Positions 3,188 through 27,635 of a stretch of 64,000 nucleotides of DNA are shown one piece after another; within the stretch, counting starts at the first letter, position 1, and each line of letters opens with the position of its first letter. The position numbers and the translations under genes are program-made. The notes beneath the pieces are model-generated. The model saw only the letters and a program-made list of their open reading frames with translations, ran no database searches and was not told the DNA's origin. Source of the DNA: an uncultured Candidatus Saccharibacteria bacterium (lineage in GTDB: Bacteria; Patescibacteriota; Minisyncoccia; Phycocordibacterales; Zambryskibacteraceae); contig CAYGIH010000001.1 of assembly GCA_964349945.1 (NCBI GenBank), positions 297,218 to 361,217 of the forward strand. Direction: 5' to 3'.

Positions 3188-3775
3188 TTATAAGATATTT
3201 GTCAAATATGTCTTTCTATGAATTTTAGAGGGGTTAAATTTCTTGATTGCTCTTATATGTTTAGCTGTCCCATAACCTTTGTGTTCTTCAAATCCATACT
3301 CCGGATAATTCATTGCTATCTTTATCATATATCTGTCTCTGATAACTTTAGCCAATATTGAAGCCATAGAAATCACGGGTACCTTATCATCCCCTCTTAT
3401 AATAGTCTTTTGTTTCTTAAACTCTTTTGGTGCTTTCAATCCTCCATCCAAATATATTTGAGACTGTTTAGAAACTTTAAGTTTTTTCAAGGAATCTTCT
3501 ATGCCCACCCTTATAGCTTCCACTATCCCCTTTCTATCTATTATTTTTTCTGAAACTAAAGCCACCTTATAGTCTAATATTCCACTCTTTTTCATCACCA
3601 CCGCTCTTTCAAACCATTCTTCTCGTTTCTTCTCACTTAATTTTTTTGAATCTCTAATACCTTTAAAAAACTTTTTATTTATCTTACTATTTACCACAAC
3701 AACTCCAACAGAAACAGGCCCAGCCAGAGGACCCCTGCCCGCTTCATCTATCCCGACAATAAAACTAGAATTCAT
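3188..3775 (-). CDS. rnhB: Ribonuclease HII
   Basis: N-terminal GIDEAGRGPLAGPV motif and the overall RNase HII pattern. Confidence 0.9.
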   Translation of the reverse strand: MNSSFIVGIDEAGRGPLAGPVSVGVVVVNSKINKKFFKGIRDSKKLSEKKREEWFERAVVMKKSGILDYKVALVSEKIIDRKGIVEAIRVGIEDSLKKLKVSKQSQIYLDGGLKAPKEFKKQKTIIRGDDKVPVISMASILAKVIRDRYMIKIAMNYPEYGFEEHKGYGTAKHIRAIKKFNPSKIHRKTYLTNIL

Positions 3776-7864: not shown

Positions 7865-9793
7865 TTATTTAAGTTTTCGAGTGAGAGCAGTAAGGAGTGT
7901 ATCTAATTTCATTGTAGCCACTCCGACTACTTTGTCTGCCCCACCATAATAGATATAGAGAGTTCCTTTATTCAAAATTACTCCACAAGGAAAGACAACG
8001 TTGCTCACTAGGCCTTGTTTTTCATACTCTTCTCTCGGTTCGAAGATTGGATCGGCTAAACGAGAGATAACCACCGTTGGATCCTTCAAATCAAGCAAAA
8101 CAGCCCCGACTCTGTATTCATGGTGGGCTCTTGAAATCGCATGATATAAGAGTAACCAACCCTTTTTTGTCTTTATGGGTGGCGCAGTAATGCCTACCTT
8201 CACACTATCCCAAGCTCGCTCTCTTGGGCCTAAAACCCTAATGCATTTAGTAACCTTATCCTTCTTGAAATTCAATGAATTCAAATAGTCCGCACAAATA
8301 TCTGTGCCTATGCGATGAAGCACTAAATATTTTTTGTTTATTTTCTCTGGGAAAAGACAAGCATCTTTGTCATCTATGCCTCCTGGAGTTATAAGCTCCG
8401 GCGGAGTCCAATTGAAATTTTGTTTGAGAAAATCTTTGACTAGAATTGAAGAAGCGGCGACTCGTGGTGGTCCTATGCCATCATATGCAGTGTAGAACAT
8501 ATAGATACTGTCTCCAATTTTTGTCAGTCGTGGATCCTCACATCCAGAATTATTACCTTCAATCTTTTTCATTTCAAAACCTTCTCTAGGTACATAGACT
8601 GGCTCCTTTAGACGATTTTCAATATTTAAACCATCTTTGCTTATGGCGTACCCTATCGTAGATGTATTGTCATTCGAGATAGCTCTATAGAGAATATGCG
8701 TTCTACCATTAAGATATATAGCAGCAGGGTTAAGGACTGCCTGAGCCTCCCAAGCGTGATTCTTATTAGGTAGAAGTATTGGATTACTCATGTATCGTTT
8801 CGGCTCACTTCTATCTCTTTCCATAGGATTCATGGTATTGAGCAAATCATTTAAATTGACTGTGGCTCTACAACCAGTAGTATCTGCAGCGCCATAAAAT
8901 ATGTGCAGATTATCTTTCTCTAAAAGTGCTCCAGAGGGGAAAACTACTTCCCCCACAAAACCTACTACTTCATAAGTTTCCTCTGGAATCAAAATTGGAC
9001 CTCTGGTTTGGCCAATTATTTTATAAGGATTCTTTAAATCCAAAAGCATAGCTTCAATACCAAATATTTTTGGTTTATTTTCAGGATTAGGAAAATAATA
9101 CTGAATATATGAGTAAACAAGTAACCAACCTTGTTTGGTTTTAATTGGTGCTGCTCCAATCTCTATGTGGTCATATGGAGAACGTCTAGGATCTATTTCA
9201 AATTTATCCAAATTTCCCTCTAAATCTTTCCATGTATTTTCTGACCACAAGTCCTCAACTTTGTTTGTTTGCACAATAACTATTTTTGATGGAGGAGAAT
9301 CAGTATGGGCACTAAGTATGGCAGTCACCTTGCCTCCAATTCTCTCTGGGAAAAGTGTCATAGCCTTCGCATTAAATGGTGTCACCAAATGCTTAGAATC
9401 GACTTTCTTTAAATCTCTTGAAGTCGCCACAGCCACCTTTATCCCGCTGGCTTCAAATGGGTATTTAGAAAGTGCAGTATAAAACGTATAATACTTCTTC
9501 TCAAAATATGTTACCCGAGGGTCCTCACATCCATATTTCTCCCATTCCTCTGTGGGCAAAATAAACTGAACGTGATCATCAAAATAATTCTCATCTTTAC
9601 TTTTGGCCACACCAATAATCGACCTTTGACTTGGAGTATTCAAAACATCTGGCGCAGAAATAGCTCTGTAGAGCAAATATGTTGTCTTGCCCTTTTTAAT
9701 CGGCGAAGGATTAAAGGTGGCAAAACCATCCCAGGCATGTTCGTTTGATGGTATCAGAATCGGATTGTGATGTGATCTTTTGACAATATACAT
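7865..9793 (-). CDS. Tandem double-domain GH130 family glycoside phosphorylase/hydrolase
   Basis: Two complete GH130 domains in one ORF, each with NPIL(I/L)P…FNP…LLYRAIS and CEDPR motifs. The start was chosen at Met15 (9793), which leaves a 1-nt gap after the upstream stop. Confidence 0.8.
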   Translation of the reverse strand: MYIVKRSHHNPILIPSNEHAWDGFATFNPSPIKKGKTTYLLYRAISAPDVLNTPSQRSIIGVAKSKDENYFDDHVQFILPTEEWEKYGCEDPRVTYFEKKYYTFYTALSKYPFEASGIKVAVATSRDLKKVDSKHLVTPFNAKAMTLFPERIGGKVTAILSAHTDSPPSKIVIVQTNKVEDLWSENTWKDLEGNLDKFEIDPRRSPYDHIEIGAAPIKTKQGWLLVYSYIQYYFPNPENKPKIFGIEAMLLDLKNPYKIIGQTRGPILIPEETYEVVGFVGEVVFPSGALLEKDNLHIFYGAADTTGCRATVNLNDLLNTMNPMERDRSEPKRYMSNPILLPNKNHAWEAQAVLNPAAIYLNGRTHILYRAISNDNTSTIGYAISKDGLNIENRLKEPVYVPREGFEMKKIEGNNSGCEDPRLTKIGDSIYMFYTAYDGIGPPRVAASSILVKDFLKQNFNWTPPELITPGGIDDKDACLFPEKINKKYLVLHRIGTDICADYLNSLNFKKDKVTKCIRVLGPRERAWDSVKVGITAPPIKTKKGWLLLYHAISRAHHEYRVGAVLLDLKDPTVVISRLADPIFEPREEYEKQGLVSNVVFPCGVILNKGTLYIYYGGADKVVGVATMKLDTLLTALTRKLK

Positions 9794-14430: not shown

Positions 14431-14937
14431 TTAAAACTTCCTAGAATCATATGCCCAATGCAGGAGTGCTTGCCTTTGTCTGGGTCTGCAGAAAATATCT
14501 CCAGCTCTACAATTATTCTTGATTTGAGTGATATGCCTTTTCATCGCGAGCCACCTCTTTATCTGCCTTTCATCATCTTTTGTTCGTCGGCCAAGATAAT
14601 ATCTGCAATACCACTGAAACCACCCCCTAGGGTCTTGTGGATTTATCCAACCCTTGGCTCTCCAAACTGCAAGCGACTGACTGGCATTTATTTTAAAGAA
14701 GTTGAGCTCCTTGTGCCTCTTTTTGTCTGTGGTCAACTTAGCTTTAGTGAACCAACTCCGTGGAAACTCTCTGGGTTTATCAGACATATACAAACCACCA
14801 AAAACCCCAAGCTCGAGCATTTGTTTAGGAGTCAAATCTGGTTTAAAGAGTGCTTCAAAATTTTCTATATTTTTTTTCATATATTCTTGAGAAGATTGAA
14901 AAGCTATTTCACTAATTCTCCACCATTTTTCTGCCAC
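14431..14937 (-). CDS. Hypothetical Trp/Arg-rich protein of 168 aa
   Basis: Uninterrupted ORF containing GWINPQDPRGWFQWYCRYYLGRR. No family recognised. The antisense ORF 14458..15024 was judged spurious. Confidence 0.5.
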   Translation of the reverse strand: MAEKWWRISEIAFQSSQEYMKKNIENFEALFKPDLTPKQMLELGVFGGLYMSDKPREFPRSWFTKAKLTTDKKRHKELNFFKINASQSLAVWRAKGWINPQDPRGWFQWYCRYYLGRRTKDDERQIKRWLAMKRHITQIKNNCRAGDIFCRPRQRQALLHWAYDSRKF

Positions 14938-15209
14938 TCAACCACACCACCCATATTCCTTGCATTAGAAAAACCTAATTCGTGCAATTTGTTTTCTGCC
15001 CAACCAGCCCTACCCCCTGACTGACAATATGTATAAATTGGCAAATTTTTAGGTATAGTCTTCACCACATCTACTTCTCTTTCTAATTCTCCTAGTGGTA
15101 TGTGTAGAGCACCTTGGATGTGCCCAGCGTTCCATTCATCTTTCTCCCTTACATCTATAATGACTATCTCTCCACTCTCTATTAGTTTTGATATTTGCTT
15201 GGGATTCAT
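14904..15209 (-). CDS. Single-domain rhodanese (sulfurtransferase)
   Basis: IIDVREKDEWNAGHIQGALHIPLGEL…YCQSGGRA carries the active-site Cys loop. Confidence 0.8.
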   Translation of the reverse strand: MNPKQISKLIESGEIVIIDVREKDEWNAGHIQGALHIPLGELEREVDVVKTIPKNLPIYTYCQSGGRAGWAENKLHELGFSNARNMGGVVEWQKNGGELVK

Positions 15210-15535
15210 ATTTGAATATTAAGAGAGTAGAGGCGGATGGAGAGGACGGAGAGAAGGATGAGGACAAGGAAACCGAGGGTATAGAAGATGAGCTTCACCG
15301 CTTCCCTTTTCAAACCTTCCCAATACATATAGATTGGACGACCAAAGAACAGACTGCTTGTGGTAGCTGCAGAAACTACGAAGAGAAGAAGGAAAATAAT
15401 AGGGTCAATAAACTTTTTGTCCTGCTGACCCAAAGTCTCGCTCGCATGAGTCATGAAGTATGCGACCAAAGCCACATAAACAAATATTCCTAATGCATCT
15501 ACTAGGGCCCAGAAGATTAATTTAGAATTTTTCAT
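15206..15535 (-). CDS. Membrane protein, hypothetical
   Basis: 109 aa with three TM segments. The ORF is 4-nt overlap with the rhodanese gene start. Confidence 0.45.
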   Translation of the reverse strand: MKNSKLIFWALVDALGIFVYVALVAYFMTHASETLGQQDKKFIDPIIFLLLFVVSAATTSSLFFGRPIYMYWEGLKREAVKLIFYTLGFLVLILLSVLSIRLYSLNIQI

Positions 15536-15542
15536 AACTTTT

Positions 15543-15962
15543 TTATATAGTTTCCAATAACTTTATGATTTTATCTCTGGTTATTCTATAAAATTCCAAA
15601 TTTTGTTCATCTGGATCTGTAATGTCCCAATAAGTAATTTTATTATTGTTCTTCAAAAAATCTGGGACTGCATCAGGCTTTACTATAACGATTATTTTAT
15701 CTGCATTCTGAACCATTGCGGGTGTAAGTCTTTTAATAAAATGATTTGATACGTCAACCCCAATTTCATTCAAGCATTCAATCACATATTTGGATGATGC
15801 ACGGTCTTTTAAAAGCATCCCATCAAGATCTTTACCTTCACTACCCATCGCCTCTGTCCCCGCTGACTGCACAAAAAATTCACTATTCATTTTTTGCCTT
15901 AAAATAGCCTCGGCTATTTGGCTCCTTCCTACATTACCTCTGCATACAAAAAGGATATTCAT
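15543..15962 (-). CDS. LMW protein-tyrosine-phosphatase family / ArsC-like arsenate reductase
   Basis: N-terminal ILFVCRGNVGRSQIAEA, the CX5R(S) P-loop. An ArsR regulator is encoded directly upstream. Confidence 0.75.
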   Translation of the reverse strand: MNILFVCRGNVGRSQIAEAILRQKMNSEFFVQSAGTEAMGSEGKDLDGMLLKDRASSKYVIECLNEIGVDVSNHFIKRLTPAMVQNADKIIVIVKPDAVPDFLKNNNKITYWDITDPDEQNLEFYRITRDKIIKLLETI

Positions 15963-16004
15963 GAGGTAAGTTTACTACTATTAATGCATTACTCAACTAT
16001 TCGC

Positions 16005-16268
16005 TTATTCGAGCGAATTAGAGATGTATTTTACAATGTGATGAAGATTAGTTGAAAATTTATAGAACATCTGCAAGCTTCTATGCTCTTTGTCTACAAT
16101 ATCGGCTCCATACAAAACAGCCAGATGTTTTGACGTGGCCTTGAATGACAACTTTATTTCATCAGCAATTTCGCTTACAGTCATTTCCCTTCTCTTTTTT
16201 AAACATCTCACAATCTCAAGTCTGCGTTTGTTCGCCAAAGCTTTCAAAATTCTTTCTAAATTTTTCAT
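16005..16268 (-). CDS. ArsR/SmtB family transcriptional regulator
   Basis: ALANKRRLEIVRCLKKRREMTVSEIADEIKLSFKATSKHLAVL is a winged-HTH ArsR signature. Confidence 0.8.
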   Translation of the reverse strand: MKNLERILKALANKRRLEIVRCLKKRREMTVSEIADEIKLSFKATSKHLAVLYGADIVDKEHRSLQMFYKFSTNLHHIVKYISNSLE

Positions 16269-16289: not shown

Positions 16290-16538
16290 TCAAACTATTC
16301 TACCATTCGCGCGAATAAGAGATATGTTTAATGCTGGTGATTGTGTAAATTTATACTTGATGCAAGGACGGTCCTTGCATATTATGGTTTTCACCACATC
16401 TGCCTCAGCTTCTAATTCCCCGAGTGGTATATGCAAAGCTCCTTGTATGTGTCCAGCGTCCCATTCATTTTTCTCTCTTACATCTATAAGTATTATTTTC
16501 CCGTTTTTTATTTGTGCGCTTATTTGTTTAGGATCCAT
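16290..16538 (-). pseudogene. Rhodanese paralogue disrupted by insertion of a 28-bp palindromic element
   Basis: The first 48 aa are about 80% identical to the 14904..15209 rhodanese (…GHIQGALHIPLGELE.E.DVVKTI). The frame then runs through the palindrome at 16359-16386. The 3' end derives from an ArsR-3'-end-like repeat and the catalytic Cys loop is lost. Confidence 0.6.
16359..16386. repeat. Palindromic element copy 1 (gatgcaaggacggtccttgcatattatg)
   Basis: 28 nt, identical to copy 3. The core TGCAAGGAC|GGTCCTTGCA is a perfect palindrome. Confidence 0.8.
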
Positions 16539-16558
16539 ATCTATATTTTATACTATTT

Positions 16559-16581
16559 GATGCAGGACGGTCTTTGCATTA
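16559..16581. repeat. Palindromic element copy 2 (degenerate: gatgcaggacggtctttgcatta)
   Basis: It shares the left flank tttatact…ttgatgca with copy 1. Confidence 0.6.
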
Positions 16582-16608
16582 AAAAATCCGCAAACTACGT
16601 TTGCGGAT
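16581..16608 (-). terminator. Rho-independent terminator after the 16608..16883 gene
   Basis: ATCCGCAAAC-gtag-GTTTGCGGAT (minus sense) is a perfect 10-bp stem followed by TTTTTT. Confidence 0.65.
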
Positions 16609-16883
16609 TAACCCTTCTGAACGAACTGGATGATGTTCAGCACGATTGAAATCGCAAGGAGAATTCCAGAAACCCAAGCGATGACACCAGCGATGGCCAA
16701 GCCGGCAGTACCCTTGAAGAACGCTTGAGAGGTGCTGTCGAACCCTCGCGGATTCAGCATTCCTGAAGGCATCGGGCTCCGACTCATCCTTCTCATCCGT
16801 GAAATCTGGTTGAAGATGAGGTAAATGAACGACACGGCTGCGATAAACAGCCAAACGTACCAATGTTCCATGATGTAGATCAC
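16608..16883 (-). CDS. Membrane protein, hypothetical (GC-rich)
   Basis: 91 aa with two TM segments. GC is higher than in the flanks. The alternative frame 16579..16863 was judged spurious. Confidence 0.45.
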   Translation of the reverse strand: MIYIMEHWYVWLFIAAVSFIYLIFNQISRMRRMSRSPMPSGMLNPRGFDSTSQAFFKGTAGLAIAGVIAWVSGILLAISIVLNIIQFVQKG

Positions 16884-16941
16884 ACAGTCCTCGCGGTTGA
16901 AGGTGCAGAAAACAGCTAGGAGCTATTATGCATATATTGAA

Positions 16942-17181
16942 TCACTTTGTCAATCCAATATATTTGAAGCGGGGTTGGGTGACGCCGTCGCGGGTGACTG
17001 TCTCAAGGAACATGCTGAGTGGGCGGACCCACATTGTGTTCCCTTCCTCACCTTTCACTGGGTCTGGATGAACATAAACAACCATTTTTTCTAAAGTCTC
17101 ACTATCTAATGCAACCCCAATCACCTCAACTTTCATCCCCTTAAAATGTTCGTATAACCCGAGTTTTATTTCTGAATTCAT
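16942..17181 (-). CDS. DUF1653 domain protein, copy 1
   Basis: LGLYEHFKG…SETLEKMVVY…WVRPLSMFLETVTRDGVTQPRF is a DUF1653-like pattern. It is a paralogue of 18454..18669. Confidence 0.65.
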   Translation of the reverse strand: MNSEIKLGLYEHFKGMKVEVIGVALDSETLEKMVVYVHPDPVKGEEGNTMWVRPLSMFLETVTRDGVTQPRFKYIGLTK

Positions 17182-17597
17182 ACTAAATATTTATTTATTA
17201 GTCCACTTATATCATAATCAAAATTAGTTCCAACATTTACAAATTCTAGTGGTAATTCAATAAATTCAAATATTTCTTTCTTCTCTTTATCACTATCTTT
17301 TCTATCATTTCTCATATGCGATGATCCGTTTAATTCGATTGCCAAAATTGGGTGAAAAAATGAATTACAAATTAAAAAATCAATATGTTTAGGAAGAATC
17401 TCATTTCTGTGAGAGTAATACCCCCTGCCACTAGTTGTTTCAATGATATCTGCCACTCTCATTTTTGGAAAAACATAAAAACCATCTGGTAATTGTTTTA
17501 ATAATTCTAGATAAAAAACTTCTTCACTTTTCTCCATTACGCTTTCGCGCTTTTTAAATTCGGATGATTTATCTAAGCTAAAATATTTTTTAAACAT
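17178..17597 (-). CDS. DUF2726-like protein (tentative)
   Basis: 139 aa containing KMRVADII…HIDFLICN…PILAIELNGSSH, a pattern recalled for DUF2726. Confidence 0.4.
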   Translation of the reverse strand: MFKKYFSLDKSSEFKKRESVMEKSEEVFYLELLKQLPDGFYVFPKMRVADIIETTSGRGYYSHRNEILPKHIDFLICNSFFHPILAIELNGSSHMRNDRKDSDKEKKEIFEFIELPLEFVNVGTNFDYDISGLINKYLV

Positions 17598-17610
17598 AAT
17601 ATATTTTTTC

Positions 17611-17638
17611 GATGCAAGGACGGTCCTTGCATATTATG
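17611..17638. repeat. Palindromic element copy 3 (gatgcaaggacggtccttgcatattatg)
   Basis: Identical to copy 1. It lies between the DUF2726-like gene and mscL. Confidence 0.8.
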
Positions 17639-17640
17639 AT

Positions 17641-18042
17641 TTAAATGACAACTTGTGTACAATGCGCACAACGCTTCGCATCAAGTGGTATTTCACTCAA
17701 ACACTCTTTGCATTTCTTTGTTGTTGGATCTGCTGGTGGTTCCTTGCGAGCTTTGGCTATAAGCATATTCATAGGCTTCACTACAAAGAAAAACACTGCC
17801 CCAGCTACAAGGAGAAATGATATAAGAGCATTAATAAAATGCCCATACATAAACTGACTGCCATTCAGACTAAACGAAAGCCCATTAAAATCAGGGACTT
17901 TGGTTATCGCAGCTATTAATGGGGTGAGGAGATCAGACACCAAAGCGCTCACAATTGTTCCAAACGCTGCTCCTACTACAACACCGACAGCTAGGTCAAC
18001 TACATTACCCCTAAGTAAAAATTGTTTAAATTCTTTAATCAT
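17641..18042 (-). CDS. mscL: Large-conductance mechanosensitive channel with a C-terminal zinc-ribbon
   Basis: MIKEFKQFLLRGNVVDLAVGVVVGAAFGTIVSALVSDLL is the MscL N-terminus and TM1. The C-terminus KKCKECLSEIPLDAKRCAHCTQVVI (CxxC-x10-CxxC) replaces the usual helical bundle. Confidence 0.8.
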   Translation of the reverse strand: MIKEFKQFLLRGNVVDLAVGVVVGAAFGTIVSALVSDLLTPLIAAITKVPDFNGLSFSLNGSQFMYGHFINALISFLLVAGAVFFFVVKPMNMLIAKARKEPPADPTTKKCKECLSEIPLDAKRCAHCTQVVI

Positions 18043-18108
18043 ATAATTAACAAATGTTATGTATTAATTTTTCCTTTTTGTATTTTACCACTAATTTAGC
18101 TTCGATTC

Positions 18109-18381
18109 TTATTCTAGTTTTTTGCAAAATACTAGAATAGATTCGGCGCGAGGTGTCAGCTTATGTAATACGTTATTACCCTTATTCCTTTTCAAAACCA
18201 ACCCAGCAATGGCCATTTTGCGAATATGATCTGAAGCATTCTGATAACCAATTTTTAATTTCTCTGATATGTCTTCCACTGATAATTCTGGTTCATTTTT
18301 CAGTAATTCTAATATTTGTATTCTCCTATGATTCGCAAAACCTTTTACTGCCCTTTCTATCCTTCTATAATTTGTTGCCAT
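18109..18381 (-). CDS. ArsR/SmtB family transcriptional regulator (second copy)
   Basis: FANHRRIQILELLKNEPELSVEDISEKLKIGYQNASDHIRKMAIAGLV is a winged-HTH ArsR signature. Confidence 0.8.
   Translation of the reverse strand: MATNYRRIERAVKGFANHRRIQILELLKNEPELSVEDISEKLKIGYQNASDHIRKMAIAGLVLKRNKGNNVLHKLTPRAESILVFCKKLE
18110..18139. promoter_or_regulatory. Operator-like palindrome B1 (tattctagttttttgcaaaatactagaata)
   Basis: Near-perfect 30-bp palindrome with a TTTTGCAAAA core. It overlaps the arsR-2 3' end and lies 70-100 nt upstream of mscL. Confidence 0.45.
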
Positions 18382-18416
18382 AAAATATTTTTATATTTTA
18401 AAATACCTCCTTAATT

Positions 18417-18448
18417 CTATTACGTAATTTTGCAAAAAACTAGAATAG
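18417..18448. promoter_or_regulatory. Operator-like repeat B2 (ctattacgtaattttgcaaaaaactagaatag)
   Basis: Same TTTTGCAAAA…ACTAGAATA half-site as B1, with the other arm replaced by ctattacgtaa. It lies upstream of the arsR-2 start. Confidence 0.45.
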
Positions 18449-18453
18449 ATATA

Positions 18454-18669
18454 CTAAGAAAGGGGTTTGAAGCGGGGTTGGGTGACGCCGTCGCGGGTGA
18501 CAGTCTCGAGGAACATACTGAGTGGGCGGACCCAGAGAGCTTCTTCACCAAAGTGTTTGTAGATGACCATTTTCTCCAATGTCTCACTGTGTTGAGCAAA
18601 CCCAACCACTTCGTATTTCCCTCCTTTGAAATGCTCATACAACCCAAGTTTTATTTCTTCATTATTCAT
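18454..18669 (-). CDS. DUF1653 domain protein, copy 2
   Basis: MNNEEIKLGLYEHFKGGKYEVVGFAQHSETLEKMVIYKH…WVRPLSMFLETVTRDGVTQPRFK. About 70 nt of DNA in the 3' half are near-identical to copy 1. Confidence 0.65.
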   Translation of the reverse strand: MNNEEIKLGLYEHFKGGKYEVVGFAQHSETLEKMVIYKHFGEEALWVRPLSMFLETVTRDGVTQPRFKPLS

Positions 18670-18702
18670 ATCTGTATTTTACATCATTTATAATTTTTAA
18701 AT

Positions 18703-18732
18703 CTATTACGTAATTTTGCAAAATACTAGAAT
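18703..18732. promoter_or_regulatory. Operator-like repeat B3 (ctattacgtaattttgcaaaatactagaata)
   Basis: Third copy, located upstream of DUF1653 copy 2. Confidence 0.45.
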
Positions 18733-18810
18733 AAGGACTATTTAACTATTCGCCTATTCCCTCCTTCGTATAAAACTACGGACGGGCGCGGCGCGCGAAT
18801 TAGAGAAGAG

Positions 18811-18879
18811 AAAATGCATCACCTCATACTTCCCTCCCTTAAAATGTTCGTATAACCCGAGTTTTATGGATTGATTCAT
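18811..18879 (-). pseudogene. 5' fragment of a third DUF1653 gene
   Basis: Encodes MNQSIKLGLYEHFKGGKYEV…. 33 nt are identical to the 5' end of copy 1. It is truncated at a junction with the aactattcgc…gcgcgaattagag repeat. Confidence 0.5.
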
Positions 18880-18881
18880 AA

Positions 18882-19742
18882 TTACCATATTAAATCATTT
18901 AATATGCCGTTCTCAATCATGTTTAGATTAAAAACATATTCATTATGATTATATGTCTCTTCGAGGGGTCTGAGTGCTGTCTCCCAGCCTTTCCCATCGG
19001 TAATCCAAATAAAATCAATGTTTTGCTTTCTTAAATCTGTATATAGACTCTTGAATTCGCCACATACAGCTTTCAGTTTTGATCCTCCCCCATTATAAAA
19101 ATTTACTTCTAAAAGTTTGATTTTATTATTTTTGGGATTATATATTGCGAAATCAAAACTTCTGCTAGATTTATCTACTTCAACGATTAACCCCCATTCT
19201 TCCTTTATTTTTTTAGCATTAACCTGTTTAAGATAAGCTAAACCTTTGTCATTACAAAATTTAATAATATTAGCTTCAGTTATATCTTCCATTAGAGTTC
19301 CTTCTCTGTTTTTTCTGCCATTACTATCTAAACCAACCTCAACTCCAATAACGTAATCAACAAGATTTTTTATACCATCTTCATTAAATAATTTTGCTAG
19401 TCCAGTATTTTTTATAAAATCATAGTATTCTTCAGCTTTTTTATTAGCATTGTTATTAAAATTGAAAAACATGCTTTTTTTAGTTTCTAAATCAAAAAGC
19501 TCAATATTTTTTTCACGTATCGCAAGAAGTGCTGGTATAGCTCTTATAATATCTGGATTTGACGAATAAAGTTTAATAAATTCTTCTTTTAAATTTTTCT
19601 TTCCTAAAAGATAATTCAATTTATTTAGAATTATTTCTAACTCTGAACTATGAGAAAATACTTTATTCCAATTAACAAAATAATCCCATGTTTTAATAGA
19701 ATTTTTGAAGGTATTAACTAAATAATTAAAATCTTTTTTCAT
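18882..19742 (-). CDS. Type II restriction endonuclease, DpnII/MboI (GATC) family
   Basis: 286 aa. LVDYVIGVEVGLDSNGRKNREGTLMEDI, LLEVNFYNGGGSKL and FIWITDGKGWE align with recalled R.DpnII segments (LVDYVTGVEVGMDTNGRKNRTG…, LIEVNFYSGSGSKL, FMWITDGQGW). Confidence 0.8.
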   Translation of the reverse strand: MKKDFNYLVNTFKNSIKTWDYFVNWNKVFSHSSELEIILNKLNYLLGKKNLKEEFIKLYSSNPDIIRAIPALLAIREKNIELFDLETKKSMFFNFNNNANKKAEEYYDFIKNTGLAKLFNEDGIKNLVDYVIGVEVGLDSNGRKNREGTLMEDITEANIIKFCNDKGLAYLKQVNAKKIKEEWGLIVEVDKSSRSFDFAIYNPKNNKIKLLEVNFYNGGGSKLKAVCGEFKSLYTDLRKQNIDFIWITDGKGWETALRPLEETYNHNEYVFNLNMIENGILNDLIW

Positions 19743-19743
19743 G

Positions 19744-21339
19744 TTATTTTGTAATATTATTTTTAAGATAATTCCATGTTTCTATACTTTTTGTAAAAAT
19801 TTTATTTTCATTCAGATTTTTATCTTTCCTCATTTGCTCAATATAATATTTTTGTAAAATATTAAATATTTCATTTATATCTGTTTCGCTGTTTGATTTT
19901 AAATAATAGAGACCAGCTATAATATGAAAGTCCATATGCCTAAGCATGCTTTTTTTGTTTTTATTTTTTTCACTTTTAATTTTTTTATCTACCAAAATTC
20001 CAATATCACATAATTCTATTATCCTGTTTGAATTAGTTTTGATTAGCTTTTGAACTTTTTCATATTCTCCGCGTATATCATTTTCAAAAATACTTTTTCT
20101 TGCATTTTTTGCTTGAGCTGGTTGCATATAGAATGCAGCATAAGACCATTGAAAAAATTTAATATATGGAATATTCATAATTTTTTTATCATGAAGTGAG
20201 CCTTTCCTGTTATAAATATATTTTCCTTTGCTTTTATTAAAAATAAAAATCTCCAATTCCTTTTGAAATAAATCATTTGTCCTAAGATCTTCCACTCTAA
20301 CAGCTTTTTGCGTATTAGATGATTCACAAATTCTATCAATCAACTGTTGGTCAACTGCTTGTATAAGCTTACATACAACCTTCGCATTTTTAAAATGAAT
20401 ATCTTTAGGGTTATTTTTATATAAACTAGAAAGATTACCAATAGTTTGCGCCCCATTAACAACTTGTGGCTCAATAATTTTATATTGCCTACTTTCACTT
20501 ATTATTTTTTTAGCAATAATCGTAATACCATTATGAAAAAGAAAAAACTTTTTAGTTTCATTTTGAATTGTCTTCAAAAGACCGTTTTGAAATTTAAAGT
20601 TTTTATGAGGAATCCTCACATTACTTGAAAATAAATCCTTATTATCATCAATATGTTTCTGATAAAGCTTTAGTAAGTCTAAAACGTTTACATTTACTAT
20701 TATTTCAGAGTACTCTTTTCTATCATCAATGGGCCACATTTTTGTTGCCGAGTTTACTGATAAATTCCATTCTGACAAAAAATCTATCTCAAGTAATTTA
20801 GAAATAACTTCATCAAGTGTTAGCAATGTTAAATTAACATTCGCTATATTTTTTATATCCTGTAACATAGCATCAACTTGCTTCCCAAACTTTTTAGGAT
20901 ACTTTTTTCTTATTATAAAAAGATTAATGACTTTGCGCTTATTTTGAGAAGAATGCCATTGTTTTATTTGCTTTTTTAAACGTTCACATATAGAAAAATC
21001 TTTTGGTTTTGCCTTTAAAAAATTTCTTATAATGCTTTCTCTAAAATTCTTTAGATCATTTGTTCCTAATCCCTCTTCAATTTTAAAATCAAATAGATCT
21101 AAAGACTCCTTAGCGAACACAACAGCGTCTACACCGTCATCAAAAATCCCATCTGTTATTATTAATTTAAAATCTTCATCTGTATGTTCTTTTTTATAAA
21201 TTATATTTAAACAAGTAATTATTAGAGAGTATGCCTTTTCACTAGAACCATCAAATCCTTTGCTTTGAAAATACTGAACAAGTCTTCTTGCTTGCGTTGT
21301 GTTTTTATCAATCAATGATGTCAATATCTCATTCTTCAT
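19744..21339 (-). CDS. AIPR-like abortive-infection protein (tentative) embedded in the R-M operon
   Basis: 531 aa. The N-terminal ITDGIFDDGVDAVVF is a Mrr-like DGxxDxG motif. The internal FHNGITI and VVNGAQT motifs resemble AIPR family hallmarks recalled from memory. Gaps of 1-3 nt separate it from the flanking MTase and REase genes. Confidence 0.55.
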   Translation of the reverse strand: MKNEILTSLIDKNTTQARRLVQYFQSKGFDGSSEKAYSLIITCLNIIYKKEHTDEDFKLIITDGIFDDGVDAVVFAKESLDLFDFKIEEGLGTNDLKNFRESIIRNFLKAKPKDFSICERLKKQIKQWHSSQNKRKVINLFIIRKKYPKKFGKQVDAMLQDIKNIANVNLTLLTLDEVISKLLEIDFLSEWNLSVNSATKMWPIDDRKEYSEIIVNVNVLDLLKLYQKHIDDNKDLFSSNVRIPHKNFKFQNGLLKTIQNETKKFFLFHNGITIIAKKIISESRQYKIIEPQVVNGAQTIGNLSSLYKNNPKDIHFKNAKVVCKLIQAVDQQLIDRICESSNTQKAVRVEDLRTNDLFQKELEIFIFNKSKGKYIYNRKGSLHDKKIMNIPYIKFFQWSYAAFYMQPAQAKNARKSIFENDIRGEYEKVQKLIKTNSNRIIELCDIGILVDKKIKSEKNKNKKSMLRHMDFHIIAGLYYLKSNSETDINEIFNILQKYYIEQMRKDKNLNENKIFTKSIETWNYLKNNITK

Positions 21340-21341
21340 AC

Positions 21342-22148
21342 TTAGGATTTTTTATTTTTCAAATTCTTATCTAATTCCTCATATCTTTTTATAGATACAT
21401 CTAAGTACTTTTTTTCTAAGTCTACACCTATAAACGTTCTTCCGTACAAGTGAGCCGCCACCCCAGTAGTTGAGCTACCTGTAAATGGGTCTAAAATAAC
21501 ATTTCCTTTATTTGTACTAGCCAATACAATTCTCTTCAATAAATCTTCTGGTTTTTGGGTAGGATGCTTCCCAAATTTCTTTTCAATTGGTTTTGGTGTC
21601 CCCATTGACCAAACTGAGCGCATTTGAAGGCCTGGTTTTTTTAACGCATCTTCTGGCCATGTTCCATTCTTCATCAAATCATAGTTAAATATGTGTTTTG
21701 CCTTTTTATCTTTTCTGGCCCAAATAAGAGTTTCATGACTTGCTGTGAAAAATCTACAACTTAAATTTGGTGATGCATTTGGTTTAAACCATGCAATATC
21801 ATTCAACACGTGAAATCCCGCAACTTGTAGGGCAAAACCACATTGATAAATTGAATGATATGTTCCACTTATCCAAATTGTCCCACTTGGTTTTAATACC
21901 CTATGAACCGCTTTTATCCATTCAAGATGGAATTCAAAATCTTTTTTTAGTCCATTGCTTTTATCCCAATCTCCTTTATGAACGCTGACCATTTTCCCCG
22001 CATGAACAGTAAAACCTCCATTTGAAAGCAAATATGGAGGATCTGCAAAAACCATATCAACAGAATTTTCTTCCATATCAGCCAAAATATCCAAACAATT
22101 TGCTTGATAGAGGGTAAAATTTTTATCTTTGTAATATGGTTTCTTCAT
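21342..22148 (-). CDS. Beta-class N6-adenine DNA methyltransferase, DpnA/M2.DpnII-like (GATC inferred)
   Basis: N-terminal DMVFADPPYLLSNGG (motif IV, DPPY) and C-terminal VILDPFTGSSTTGVAA (motif I). There is extended similarity to the recalled DpnA sequence (…VLKPSGTIWISG…GKHPTQKPE.LL.RI.LAST…). Confidence 0.9.
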   Translation of the reverse strand: MKKPYYKDKNFTLYQANCLDILADMEENSVDMVFADPPYLLSNGGFTVHAGKMVSVHKGDWDKSNGLKKDFEFHLEWIKAVHRVLKPSGTIWISGTYHSIYQCGFALQVAGFHVLNDIAWFKPNASPNLSCRFFTASHETLIWARKDKKAKHIFNYDLMKNGTWPEDALKKPGLQMRSVWSMGTPKPIEKKFGKHPTQKPEDLLKRIVLASTNKGNVILDPFTGSSTTGVAAHLYGRTFIGVDLEKKYLDVSIKRYEELDKNLKNKKS

Positions 22149-22553
22149 CTATCTATTCAAATAAGTAATAGTTAACTGCAATACTGTTGCAAAACTGACC
22201 CAAAGGAGATATGGGATGTTTATATAAGCAATCCAGCGAGCGATTGGGTAGATGACAACTAAAGCCCAGATGAGAGTACCTAGAACCAAAAGGATATCTA
22301 CGGCGGCGAGGTAGTTGTTCTTCAAGCCGAATTGGAAGTAAGTGAAAGAGAAGTTGAAAATGAGGTTGAGGATGAAAGGCAGAGCGACAGCGAAAGGAAT
22401 CTGTTTTTGGAAAAGGAGGATGAAAACCTTGCCGAATGAGATGGCTATTAATATATATAAAATTGGCCATACAATTCCAAAGATTGATGGATCAGGTGAC
22501 CATTGCGGTTTAATCAGCGATTGATATTCAATTTGAGTTTCATTCATGGCCAA
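22149..22553 (-). CDS. TspO/MBR family membrane protein (short form)
   Basis: IKPQWSPDPSIFGIVWPILYILIAIS parallels the TspO LKPxWxPPxWVFPLAWTSLY motif, and the C-terminal NIPYLLWVSFATVLQL resembles VPYLIWATAATGLN. It is the first gene of the R-M operon, with a 0-nt gap to the MTase. Confidence 0.65.
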   Translation of the reverse strand: MAMNETQIEYQSLIKPQWSPDPSIFGIVWPILYILIAISFGKVFILLFQKQIPFAVALPFILNLIFNFSFTYFQFGLKNNYLAAVDILLVLGTLIWALVVIYPIARWIAYINIPYLLWVSFATVLQLTITYLNR

Positions 22554-25706: not shown

Positions 25707-26363
25707 TTAAACCGCCTTATCTGCAAAGACTACAAGTCTGTTGGGGCGGTTTTGTGTTTTAGCATCCCATTTACCTGAACAGGTGATGAGGTTTAAGTGA
25801 GCCTTGCCATCGTTTGAAGAAAATACTTCTGTGGCATCTGCATCATTGGCCATGATTTTTGTCTTCATTACTATAAAAGTGACTGTCACGCCATTTTCAT
25901 CTATCACTTTTATTTTGTCCCCTATTTTTATCTTGGATAGGTTATCAAAAACCGCTGGAATTCCATTCTTCCAACCAAAATGTCCTGCAATGGTCGCACT
26001 ACCTATGTCCCCTGGTTTGGGTCCGTACTTGTACCATCCTGTGTTTATAGGTCCAGCTGGAGAATCCATGGCTCCTTCCTTGGTTAGACCTAGTCGCTCG
26101 ATGGGTGCATCTACATTTATACTTGAAATGATTAGACGAGAAAGTTTTGGTTTGGAAGTATTTGCCACTATGACCTTCGCTTCCTCCGTACTGCTCTTGG
26201 TTATAGTGAGAGGTGTGGTGGTTGCTTCTACGACTTGAATTACATTTGCGGCTTGAACAAGATCTTTGTTTTGTTCGACAAATTTATCTGCATTAATCCA
26301 GAGAACGATAACCCCAACACAGACTAGTAATAAGACCCATTTTAGTGAGATAAGAGTCTTCAT
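25707..26363 (-). CDS. Sortase (transpeptidase)
   Basis: N-terminal TM segment, ATIAGHFGW (sortase AGH motif) and HLNLITCSGKW (TLxTC catalytic Cys). Confidence 0.8.
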   Translation of the reverse strand: MKTLISLKWVLLLVCVGVIVLWINADKFVEQNKDLVQAANVIQVVEATTTPLTITKSSTEEAKVIVANTSKPKLSRLIISSINVDAPIERLGLTKEGAMDSPAGPINTGWYKYGPKPGDIGSATIAGHFGWKNGIPAVFDNLSKIKIGDKIKVIDENGVTVTFIVMKTKIMANDADATEVFSSNDGKAHLNLITCSGKWDAKTQNRPNRLVVFADKAV

Positions 26364-26378
26364 AGATGTTTTGTGAGA

Positions 26379-27635
26379 TTAAACTAACTTCTTCTTATCA
26401 ACTAGAACTATCACCAAAGACAAGAGAGTGAAGATGCCAAGATAAGTAAGGAATACTGAGGCGAAGGAAGCTTCCTCTGTGTATAGTCCAGTATTTGGAA
26501 GAGCGGGTATAAAGTAAGGAGGAGGTACAAAGGTTGTTGTTGCTATAGAAGTAGTCGTAGCTGTTGGAGTAGTGTAAGTGGTAACTGTATTTCTTCGGTG
26601 TCCACCCAGTGTAGGGGCAGCAATATCATCATTTGTAACTGTACATTGATAATTTCCATCTGCTGAAAGTGTAATATTTCCATTTGCATCACAATCTCCT
26701 GCAAATGATTGAGTGTAATTTACATCTGAAGTTTCTGTTATTGCATAAGTTGTAGCCGCAAAGTTATTTAGTATTCCTGAAACAACAGCTGTCGCACCTA
26801 CAAACAATGGGAAGTCTGAAACTATTTTTGTTCTACCGCTGTCATTAATAACCGTCTTAGTAATTGTTAATGAGGCTGGGTTAGAACAAGAAGGCACAGT
26901 GATAGTATTTATGGCTGCGATTCCACCGTTTGAAGTAACTGTTCCTCCATAAGCAAGTGCTCGTCCTACCCAATCAACCGTATCTCCGATAGTGATTCCT
27001 GCTGCATCTAGAACTGTTCCCTTGAATGTTGAATTCGCACCAAGAGTTGTGGCTGCAACTGGAGTCCAAAAGACATCACAAGCCGAAGCGCCGTTTAGGA
27101 CAACTGAAGTATTGGCACCTGTAGTGACTGCTCCACCTGTTGATTTGAAAATATAAGTTCCAGATCCATTTAGAGTGATGGAACCGTTGTCAACAATATT
27201 CATGGCTCCTGCTCGATAGTAACAACCTGGAGGAAAGTGCCCTGGTGTTCCTCCATTTATGACTATGGCATCCAAGTTGCCAACTTCACCAATATTTGTA
27301 CAACTTAAGAGATATTGGTTGTTTAGATTAGCTAGAGCAGCATTTTGGGCAATACCGGCAGCTGTCCAAGCGGCATTGTTTACTTCTGTAGTACCGTTTG
27401 AAGTATTGATTATCCCTAGTCCTGCTATAGAAGAATAGCCGAGAACTCCTAAGGTATTACCTACCACACCAGTGATGGTAGTCGTGGCATTGTGTTGAAA
27501 CAAGTTAGAAATGAGGCCAAAGGTGTTGGCTGTCCCTAGAGAAGGAGTTGTGGCTGCAAGAGCTCTATTTGGCCCTATAAGAGAGAATAGAGCAAACATT
27601 ACCAAACTTGGGATTATATAGTTAATTTTTTTCAT
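26379..27635 (-). CDS. LPXTG-anchored surface protein with an ice-binding-like (DUF3494) N-terminal domain
   Basis: Signal peptide, then LGTANTFGLISN…TTITGVVGN (DUF3494-like). A Thr-rich stalk follows, and the C-terminus has LPNTG, a hydrophobic segment and KKK. Confidence 0.8.
   Translation of the reverse strand: MKKINYIIPSLVMFALFSLIGPNRALAATTPSLGTANTFGLISNLFQHNATTTITGVVGNTLGVLGYSSIAGLGIINTSNGTTEVNNAAWTAAGIAQNAALANLNNQYLLSCTNIGEVGNLDAIVINGGTPGHFPPGCYYRAGAMNIVDNGSITLNGSGTYIFKSTGGAVTTGANTSVVLNGASACDVFWTPVAATTLGANSTFKGTVLDAAGITIGDTVDWVGRALAYGGTVTSNGGIAAINTITVPSCSNPASLTITKTVINDSGRTKIVSDFPLFVGATAVVSGILNNFAATTYAITETSDVNYTQSFAGDCDANGNITLSADGNYQCTVTNDDIAAPTLGGHRRNTVTTYTTPTATTTSIATTTFVPPPYFIPALPNTGLYTEEASFASVFLTYLGIFTLLSLVIVLVDKKKLV

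Follow-up and report, generated by a model that had tools for sequence, protein, structure and literature searches.

How does a short chromosomal segment come to hold several copies of the same small genes, parted by palindromic repeats? The question is raised by a stretch of 64,000 nucleotides (nt), called here the window, from an uncultured Candidatus Saccharibacteria bacterium (contig CAYGIH010000001.1, positions 297,218 to 361,217). In its segment 16942-18879, the initial annotation described DUF1653 genes, ArsR regulators and a further repeat as an array scrambled by gene conversion or cassette shuffling. As a whole, the locus is probably best explained by repeated operators of two small repressors, by short conversion tracts between DUF1653 paralogues and by ordinary recombination.

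The palindrome at both ends of arsR1

The two regulators reported at 16005..16268 and 18109..18381 are indeed ArsR proteins, and both ArsR1 and ArsR2 score above the gathering threshold of HTH_5 (PF01022). They share 27% identity and differ in their recognition helix and in their adjoining palindromes, which speaks against the view that they are duplicated modules. By sequence, the solved structures in the Protein Data Bank (PDB) nearest to ArsR1 are HlyU, NolR and PagR, and the fold is the winged helix of the ArsR/SmtB family. ArsR1 has no CVC motif of a metal or metalloid site, and its single cysteine (IVRCLKK) is replaced in relatives (ILRALKH, ILKTLKH); it is therefore grouped with the non-metal members of the family.

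The repeat is real and occurs at three places, sites A, B and C, at coordinates slightly different from those first given. Its core is ATTCGNNCGAAT and its full form TCTCTAATTCGCGCGAATTAGAGA. At site B, TGGTAGAAT comes after ATTCGCGCGAAT, which begins 48 nt 5' of the arsR1 ATG. Site A overlaps the last arsR1 codons (ISNSLE*) at ~45-56 nt 5' of the gene of a low-molecular-weight (LMW) phosphatase and falls in the -11 position class, which is common to 9 relatives. In the same way, the relatives L017-L020 carry TCTCTAATTCGCGCGAATGGTAGAATAGTT, the same 30-mer as site B, 5' of the arsR start codon, and TCTCTAATTCGCTCGAATAGGCGAATA over the same last arsR codons and the stop.

The comparison was extended to ArsR1 relatives in 80 metagenome loci (48-83% identity, 67-68 distinct proteins). 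Of the 67 distinct relatives, 63 have the core within 100 nt 5' of arsR, usually at -37 to -56, and 49 have it at or just past the arsR stop codon; in 17 of these 49 the TAA lies inside TCTCTAATTCG. Altogether, 173 copies were counted in 478 kb of loci, against ~0.5 expected by chance, and most other loci hold versions that are split or have one mismatch. The upstream consensus, TctCTaATTCGcGCGAATgGTagAATA, runs into an extended -10 element, TGGTAgAAT, and in 18/62 the offset of TGnTAnnWT is constant. From lineage to lineage the outer arms change, yet they remain palindromic and matched between both sites of each gene, and it is these lineage-specific arms that may set specificity. Because of its placement at arsR start and stop and its fusion to the extended -10, the palindrome is read not as the junction mark it had been taken for but as the probable operator and promoter of ArsR1.

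Site B, ~40-55 nt 5' of arsR1 and fused to the extended -10, would allow autoregulation, the overlap of operator and own promoter being indicated by position and conservation. The site A copy over the arsR1 stop would control the next gene, and the split third copy, site C, precedes DUF1653-2. The gene 3' of arsR differs in almost every relative (MsrB, GIY-YIG, DUF167, acylphosphatase and DUF1653, among others).

ArsR1-type genes with this core are numerous in groundwater Patescibacteria, with several units in some loci (among L025-L104); for instance, L044 holds six motif copies and two ArsR1-type matches, and L085 five copies. No description of ArsR operators in Patescibacteria was found in the searchable literature. 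Their architecture appears undescribed there, though the type of element is conventional.

ArsR2 and its palindrome

The second regulator repeats this architecture with another sequence. Its palindrome, opR2, reads TATTCTAGTWTTTTGCAAAAWACTAGAATA, and the three copies in the window all lie around arsR2. Copy 2 has the same position in L021, and the region of copy 1 is identical (36/36) 5' of MscL in L106, L107 and L110. A promoter candidate, TGGTAAAAT, lies ~20 nt 3' of copy 1, ahead of MscL. By likeness to ArsR1, opR2 is probably the operator of ArsR2, and its copies would act ahead of DUF1653-2, of arsR2 and, over the arsR2 3' end, of MscL. An exact-protein look-up of ArsR2 returned no record.

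In L029, a gene for an NYN-domain protein is flanked by direct repeats (2762-2938 and 3578-3754), each ending in the opR2 palindrome; blastn aligned them over 177 nt at 94% identity. The arrangement looks like an insertion by recombination at the opR2 element.

The truncated third DUF1653 copy and site C

The 5' fragment of a third DUF1653 gene was confirmed, at 18814..18879. Only its first ~22 codons are left, its open reading frame (ORF) continues to 18754, and it matches positions 1-16 only of the Pfam profile, with a score below the cut-off. The fragment is joined to site C, which is site B plus a 32-nt insert; this insert recurs 5' of DUF1653 in L020. Together they form a 136-nt block that is 94% identical to L017 9141-9276 and is also present in L018 and L019, while orthologous genes in the same alignment are just 74-86% identical. 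In both genomes the relic keeps an unbroken short ORF of 41-43 codons. The truncation, first regarded as a junction, is therefore old and not recent. The block would be either under constraint or kept homogeneous by conversion. Site C showed no sign of a structured RNA, with a fold z of -0.22.

Split operators were also observed elsewhere. GC-rich inserts of 20-60 nt, often forming a CCCGCC...GGCGGG hairpin, split ArsR operators and recur past the arsR 3' end of lineages far apart: in L048, L057, L065, L070/L071 and L082 (3' of arsR), in the window at 18744-18806, in L017 at 9213-9275 and in L020 at ~1690-1790. They could be nested terminators, very small insertion elements or sites of a separate class.

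A plastic zone and the search for a recombinase

The initial annotation had proposed a comparison with related genomes, and it revealed the same modules in different orders. L017, L020, L106/L107, L110 and L021 share with the locus the flanking genes NMO, TspO, DUF2177, MscL and Gmad2, and the ArsR, DUF1653, rhodanese and MscL modules are ordered differently across the window and these relatives. The slot after TspO, where that gene is on the fetched contig, carries a different island in each genome: that of the window has DpnII and AbiU, that of L106/L107 is a type III restriction-modification system, and L017 has Holliday-junction-type endonucleases with a Cas4-like protein. In L021, on a short contig without TspO, type I restriction-enzyme genes directly abut DUF1653. 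Thus the part of the shuffling claim that concerns a plasticity zone next to a restriction-modification island was upheld, with its reordered modules and variable island slot; a shufflon- or integron-like mechanism was not.

A Pfam scan of ORFs of at least 120 amino acids (aa) between 0.3 and 35 kb detected no recombinase, integrase, invertase, transposase or reverse transcriptase. The palindromes centred on ATTCGNNCGAAT lack the R'/R'' GTTRRRY core of attC sites. The DUF1653 repeats are direct, the genes lie on one strand and the scanned ORFs include no invertase, at odds with a shufflon. An integron or shufflon was set aside on the site pattern and the want of a recombinase in the scanned ORFs. 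A diversity-generating retroelement was likewise rejected: the mismatches between the DUF1653 copies (C/T, T/C and A/T) are not confined to adenine, and no reverse transcriptase is encoded in those ORFs.

It is unlikely that the palindromes are attC- or shufflon-like recombination sites bounding mobile cassettes in an actively shuffled array. Several observations would suit such a model: the module order that varies among the window, L017, L020, L106 and L021, the changing gene downstream of arsR, the 5' gene relics that abut operator copies, the arsR unit of L100 and L101, and the NYN-domain gene of L029 between direct repeats (~140-180 nt) ending in opR2. Moreover, the palindromes split by GC-rich inserts of variable length (L048, L057, L065, L070, L082 and site C) resemble attC superficially. 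However, no integrase, invertase or transposase was found in the ORFs scanned up to 35 kb, and the attC core is missing. The motif also keeps a constant spacing to the arsR start, as a promoter would, is fused to an extended -10 and overlaps the stop codon of the gene of the DNA-binding protein that it flanks. The junction of relic and site C, conserved at 94% across species, is old and stable. Finally, L106 and L107 differ in a gene between the two opR2 copies, yet beyond the palindrome their flanks show no difference over 70 nt or more.

Between relatives, module order would have been changed by ordinary homologous or illegitimate recombination and not by a dedicated recombinase. The paralogues and the repeated operators may have served as its substrates.

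Some observations weigh against the explanation preferred here. The binding of ArsR1 and ArsR2 to their palindromes is deduced from placement. The opR2 palindrome is 100% conserved in L029, L106, L107 and L110, where the fetched flanks contain no arsR2, and two of those copies lie between convergent genes, with no obvious job for an operator. Two 5' gene relics are found near operators, that of DUF1653 by site C and that of a rhodanese ~60 nt from site B. The arsR unit of L100/L101, 99.4% identical, ends at the downstream operator, and its flanks are 89% identical or cannot be aligned. These relics and this unit would also fit operators that act as recombination breakpoints. Moreover, the direction of gene conversion discussed below depends on few orthologues, and the GC richness of the 36-nt block is not shared by the nearest relative sequence, that in L021, which is only 81% identical and less GC-rich.

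A further model gives both functions to the same sequences. In Minisyncoccia and other Patescibacteria, palindromic ArsR operators, including those split by GC-rich hairpins, would double as breakpoints, and arsR with its operator, as well as segments bounded by opR2, would be portable cassettes that become coupled to new downstream genes. Such a system of very small genomes would work independently of a recombinase or by an unknown one, with repeated GC-biased conversion. The chance that this model holds is slim. When breakpoints between close relatives were compared with the palindromes, L100/L101 gave a suggestive case and L106/L107 a counter-example.

A shared core in two diverged DUF1653 genes

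Both complete DUF1653 genes were confirmed with Pfam; copies 1 and 2 cover positions 1-61 of the 62-position PF07866 profile. A literature search on the family returned one incidental mention, in a proteomics table, and its PDB relative, 3be3, is itself uncharacterised. The near-identical stretch of about 70 nt noticed at the outset is a 69-nt core, identical at 66/69 positions and encoding the same peptide, WVRPLSMFLETVTRDGVTQPRFK, in both copies. Its three mismatches (C/T, T/C and A/T) are synonymous, at third positions, and lie in the first 33 nt. Outside the core, DUF1653-1 and DUF1653-2 are 65% identical (86/132).

This contrast was not reproduced by chance. In 20,000 permutations of the alignment columns, a 69-nt stretch with 66 matches never appeared (p<5e-5), and a run of 36 matches had p=1e-4. 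Where both copies have the same degenerate amino acid, the same codon is used at 18/21 positions of the core versus 12/27 upstream (Fisher p=0.0036). The GC content of third codon positions (GC3) is 0.78 in the core versus 0.36-0.42 in the upstream parts of the genes. The last 36 nt reach 67% GC and a GC3 of 10/12, a value attained by only ~1.5% of the 12-codon windows in the long ORFs of the window. Inspection of the letters shows in it two copies of GTCACCC in direct orientation, with a spacing of 15 nt, and the palindrome GACGGCGTC.

DUF1653-1 as a mosaic

DUF1653-1 is a mosaic of two gene types: its middle and tail are of type 1, while its 5' 32 nt and 3' 69 nt are of type 2. It belongs to a subfamily with an HPDPVKGE insertion, whose orthologues are P0126-P0128 and L111. 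In these type-1 orthologues the core region reads LDMFIETIERDGKxxKRFEYIG, versus LSMFLETVTRDGVTQPRFKYIG in copy 1. Copy 1 agrees with copy 2 at 86/132 positions of the 5' part, 30/33 of the first 33 nt of the core and 36/36 of its last 36 nt, versus 108/147, 21/33 and 11/36 with its type-1 orthologue in L111. Phylogenetic placement is accordingly incongruent, the flanks of copy 1 being nearest to L111 and P0126-P0128 and its tract nearest to copy 2 and L106. Both this incongruence and the excess identity of the tract over its flanks, synonymous sites included, support the view that the DUF1653 paralogues exchanged short stretches by ectopic gene conversion, as the initial annotation had surmised. 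The TVTRDGVTQPRFK block of copy 1 would thus be converted and not ancestral to type-1 DUF1653.

DUF1653-2 is itself composite. Copy 2 agrees with L106 at 119/135, 32/33 and 15/36 of the same three parts and with L021 at 95/132, 26/33 and 29/36. Its nearest orthologue is P0121 in L106 (Minisyncoccia), at 88% in the 5' part and 97% in the first 33 nt of the core, and the alignment, 91% identical, ends abruptly at window position 18500. The order of modules in L021 is like that of the window, with DUF1653 followed directly by the opR2 palindrome and then by an ArsR2 orthologue. The abrupt end of the L106 match, together with the L021-like last block, tail and module order, indicates that two types of module had already been joined in DUF1653-2. 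The tract of copy 1 includes this chimeric junction, and copy 2 has the L106 state at two of the three mismatches, which suggests copy 2 as the donor of the tract and copy 1 as its recipient.

Another tract was found at the 5' end of DUF1653-1, where 32 nt are identical (32/32) to positions 18836-18867 in the relic (run-length permutation p=5e-5). The relic of L017 holds the same sequence, and by manual count on the alignment only about two thirds of this stretch are matched by the type-1 orthologue in L111. The protein there has LGKYKHF versus LGLYEHF in type-1 orthologues. With this tract alongside the first, repeated short gene conversion is the best reading.

The events would then have followed one another. 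DUF1653-2 would first have become chimeric, with a 5' part of P0121/L106 type and with last 36 nt, palindrome and arsR2 of L021 type. The 69-nt tract would then have been copied from DUF1653-2 into DUF1653-1, and the 32-nt tract at the 5' end of DUF1653-1 would derive from the relic copy. Compared with L021, 5/7 differences in the 36-nt block are T-to-C changes at synonymous third positions, a pattern that would fit GC-biased conversion or a GC-richer donor.

Two further traits of DUF1653 genes were observed. A -10-like TAAAAT or TAGAAT ends 6-8 nt before the ATG of DUF1653 genes or of the relic (window 18669-18700; L017 9975-10003 and 9120-9143), and such proximity suggests leaderless DUF1653 transcripts. 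Besides, DUF1653 frequently closes operons that are otherwise unrelated (L021 2572-2575; L022 6001; L111 5001; window 17178-17181), its start overlapping the stop of a gene for a type I restriction subunit, FolD or ThrRS and, in the window, DUF2726. To judge from these overlaps, DUF1653 is a recurrent, apparently translationally coupled tail gene.

Other origins of the core

It is quite improbable that a foreign DUF1653 gene of higher GC content independently gave both copies their 3' segment, through horizontal transfer followed by homologous recombination. In favour of this, lineages of higher GC, for instance the Faecalibacterium, Caldilineaceae and L022 groups, have VTRDGVTQPRF as a native peptide, and immediately 3' of copy 1 there is a GC-rich ORF of 91 aa that has a promoter and a terminator to itself. 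A degenerate-codon scan of GTDB genomes retrieved the block peptide from Faecalibacterium, Caldilineaceae, Kiritimatiellia and others, at 77-81% nucleotide identity. However, the sequences of those higher-GC lineages are only 72-81% identical to the core, no foreign donor of the block was found in genome or viral collections, and its exact 33-mer is absent from viral contigs. Two independent events would also need 36/36 identity and the same 5' breakpoint context. Finally, the first 33 tract nt of copy 1 match local type 2 (30/33 to copy 2 and to L106), which places the donor in the same genome.

It is very doubtful that the core stays identical through purifying selection at the nucleotide level, on DNA or RNA with a function of its own such as RNA structure, binding or the signalling of recombination. 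The complete identity of the last 36 nt, their odd composition with a GC3 of 10/12, and the GTCACCC repeat and GACGGCGTC palindrome within them could point that way. On the contrary, orthologues of both genes lack the block, and the window has no further copy of it beyond the two in the cores. Its folding is no better than that of shuffled sequences (z=+0.42 and -0.11), and Rfam returned nothing in the core and only two distant tRNAs.

A collapsed or chimeric assembly, which the initial annotation had raised against itself, is hardly credible: in another assembly, one core copy is covered by contig L001 and one by contig L002 (k141), in each case together with its unique flanks on both sides and at 100% identity, the Logan contig L105 (k=31) stops 30 nt (k-1) into the 36-nt exact repeat, as expected of a true two-copy repeat in the reads, the only other assemblies of the same organism are identical, and the agreement of three independent assemblies in effect rules an artefact out.

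Layout of the locus

All genes between 14.4 and 25 kb are on the minus strand, and the features are listed in Table 1 in the direction of transcription. The DUF2726 and MscL genes sit between the two core copies. PADLOC returned no match for DUF1653, DUF2726 or the 91-aa ORF, so that a defence role is unsupported.

Table 1. Features of the locus in the direction of transcription (positions in the window; operators are predicted)
Feature	Position	Strand	Remarks
TspO	22149..22553	-	first in the direction of transcription
Defence island	18882..22148	-	between TspO and DUF1653 relic; type II methyltransferase, AIPR/AbiU-like protein, DpnII-type endonuclease
Block of relic and site C	18744..18879	-	136 nt, conserved; first ~22 DUF1653 codons fused to split ArsR1-type operator
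DUF1653 5' relic	18814..18879	-	third DUF1653 copy, after defence island
Site C, split palindrome	18744..18806	-	arms 18792-18806 and 18744-18759, insert 18760-18791; after relic, before opR2 copy 3
opR2 copy 3	18702..18733	.	33 nt 5' of DUF1653-2 ATG
DUF1653-2	18454..18669	-	Pfam, 71 aa, E=1.4e-26
Core copy 2	18466..18534	-	inferred donor; GC-rich 36-nt block at 18466-18501
opR2 copy 2	18416..18447	.	35 nt 5' of arsR2 ATG; 6 nt past DUF1653-2 stop codon
ArsR2	18109..18381	-	Pfam HTH_5, E=6.1e-07
opR2 copy 1	18110..18141	.	perfect 15+15 palindrome encoding ArsR2 C-terminus; 68 nt 5' of MscL ATG
MscL	17641..18042	-	Pfam; syntenic in L017 and L106
Third-family palindrome TGCAAGGACGGTCCTTGCA	17613..17631	.	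between MscL and DUF2726
DUF2726	17178..17597	-	Pfam; overlaps DUF1653-1 start region
DUF1653-1	16942..17181	-	Pfam, 79 aa, E=3.5e-21
Second conversion tract (putative)	17138..17169	-	in DUF1653-1; identical to relic
Core copy 1	16963..17031	-	encodes the same peptide as core copy 2
GC-rich 91-aa ORF with promoter and terminator	16585..16953	-	membrane-like; 3' of DUF1653-1
Rhodanese 5' relic	16290..16538	-	partial Pfam match
Site B	16293..16322	-	predicted ArsR1 operator/promoter, 5' of arsR1
ArsR1	16005..16268	-	Pfam HTH_5, E=1.9e-12
Site A	15995..16024	-	second predicted ArsR1 operator, over last arsR1 codons
LMW phosphatase, small membrane protein, full rhodanese	14904..15962	-	phosphatase at 15543..15962

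A third family of palindromes, ATGCAAGGAC-N-GTCCTTGCAT, accompanies the rhodanese relic. The relic, of a rhodanese paralogue and 82% identical to the rhodanese of L020, has its homology at 16387-16550. The palindrome at 16361-16379 stands exactly where homology is lost and interrupts the relic ahead of the catalytic loop. Over 28 nt this copy is identical to the one at 17613-17631, and a degenerate copy (~16558-16578) lies just 5' of the relic. The palindrome folds strongly (z=-4.4), has no U-tract on the coding strand and was not found in any fetched relative.

The ORF of 91 aa itself (16608..16883) encodes a two-helix membrane-like protein at 50-58% GC. It is preceded by a strong promoter close to the consensus, TTGACA-17-CATAAT (16953-16925), and its terminator (16609-16585) is of canonical form. 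No Pfam match, no exact record and no homologue in any fetched locus was found for it, and it looks like a self-contained foreign gene.

The wider window, ~39% GC overall and part of a contig of 381,535 bp, is ordinary chromosome, with genes for DnaE, NusB, RNase HII, FolD and a sigma factor, and the proteins closest to its own come from metagenome-assembled genomes named Minisyncoccia bacterium. A sortase gene adjoins that of a 418-aa protein with an ice-binding-like domain (25707-27635). Between 38000 and 44000, GC rises to 0.46-0.52 from ~0.39 elsewhere, and this stretch includes an 824-aa ORF (40307..42781) with long overlapping ORFs on the opposite strand.

Relation to known systems

ArsR1 resembles autoregulated repressors of the HlyU, NolR and PagR type, which have no metal site, in its small winged-helix HTH_5 domain and, as far as position tells, in a palindrome over its own promoter. 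It differs from them by a predicted operator at both ends of the gene, the downstream copy containing the arsR stop, by a single, unconserved cysteine with no evident metal or thiol site, and by a variable downstream gene. In Escherichia coli, YgaV-YgaP consists of an ArsR regulator followed by a rhodanese. In the same way, the putative regulated gene is a rhodanese both in L020 and in the window, where the regulator would reach it through an operon of three genes.

The classic case of ectopic gene conversion between bacterial paralogues is that of tufA and tufB in Salmonella. The DUF1653 tracts share with it the short stretch of high identity, the homogenised synonymous sites and the incongruent phylogenies of tract and flanks. 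On the other hand, they are very short (32 and 69 nt), outside them the genes agree at only ~65% of positions, of the two proposed donors one is a truncated copy, and the tract is GC-enriched in an AT-rich genome, possibly through GC-biased conversion. In Neisseria pilE/pilS and Borrelia vlsE, conversion is templated by pseudogenes. Here too, a silent truncated copy (18814-18879), conserved across species, is identical over a tract of 32 nt to a paralogue that is expressed; however, there is one relic and a single tract, the DUF1653 product of ~70 aa is no known surface antigen, and the locus gives no evidence of ongoing variation. Finally, small genes on the same strand, parted by imperfect palindromes of which some have variable central inserts, recall integron arrays. 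The differences are the absence of an integrase in the scanned ORFs and of a GTTRRRY core, and palindromes that flank a DNA-binding regulator at promoter distance.

Meaning for the organism and the family

The apparently scrambled array reduces to two familiar processes, the operator repeats of small repressors and short ectopic conversion near a hot spot for defence islands. Current views are not overturned: the mechanisms are of known kinds, and the locus is real but fairly ordinary. It provides a small, clean example of mosaic evolution in the uncharacterised DUF1653 family. As a useful by-product, an ArsR subfamily that groundwater Patescibacteria commonly encode gains a candidate operator/promoter, whose ATTCGNNCGAAT core with lineage-specific arms is found at each end of arsR. 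In these organisms, where few transcription factors are known, the motif could seed the prediction of regulons.

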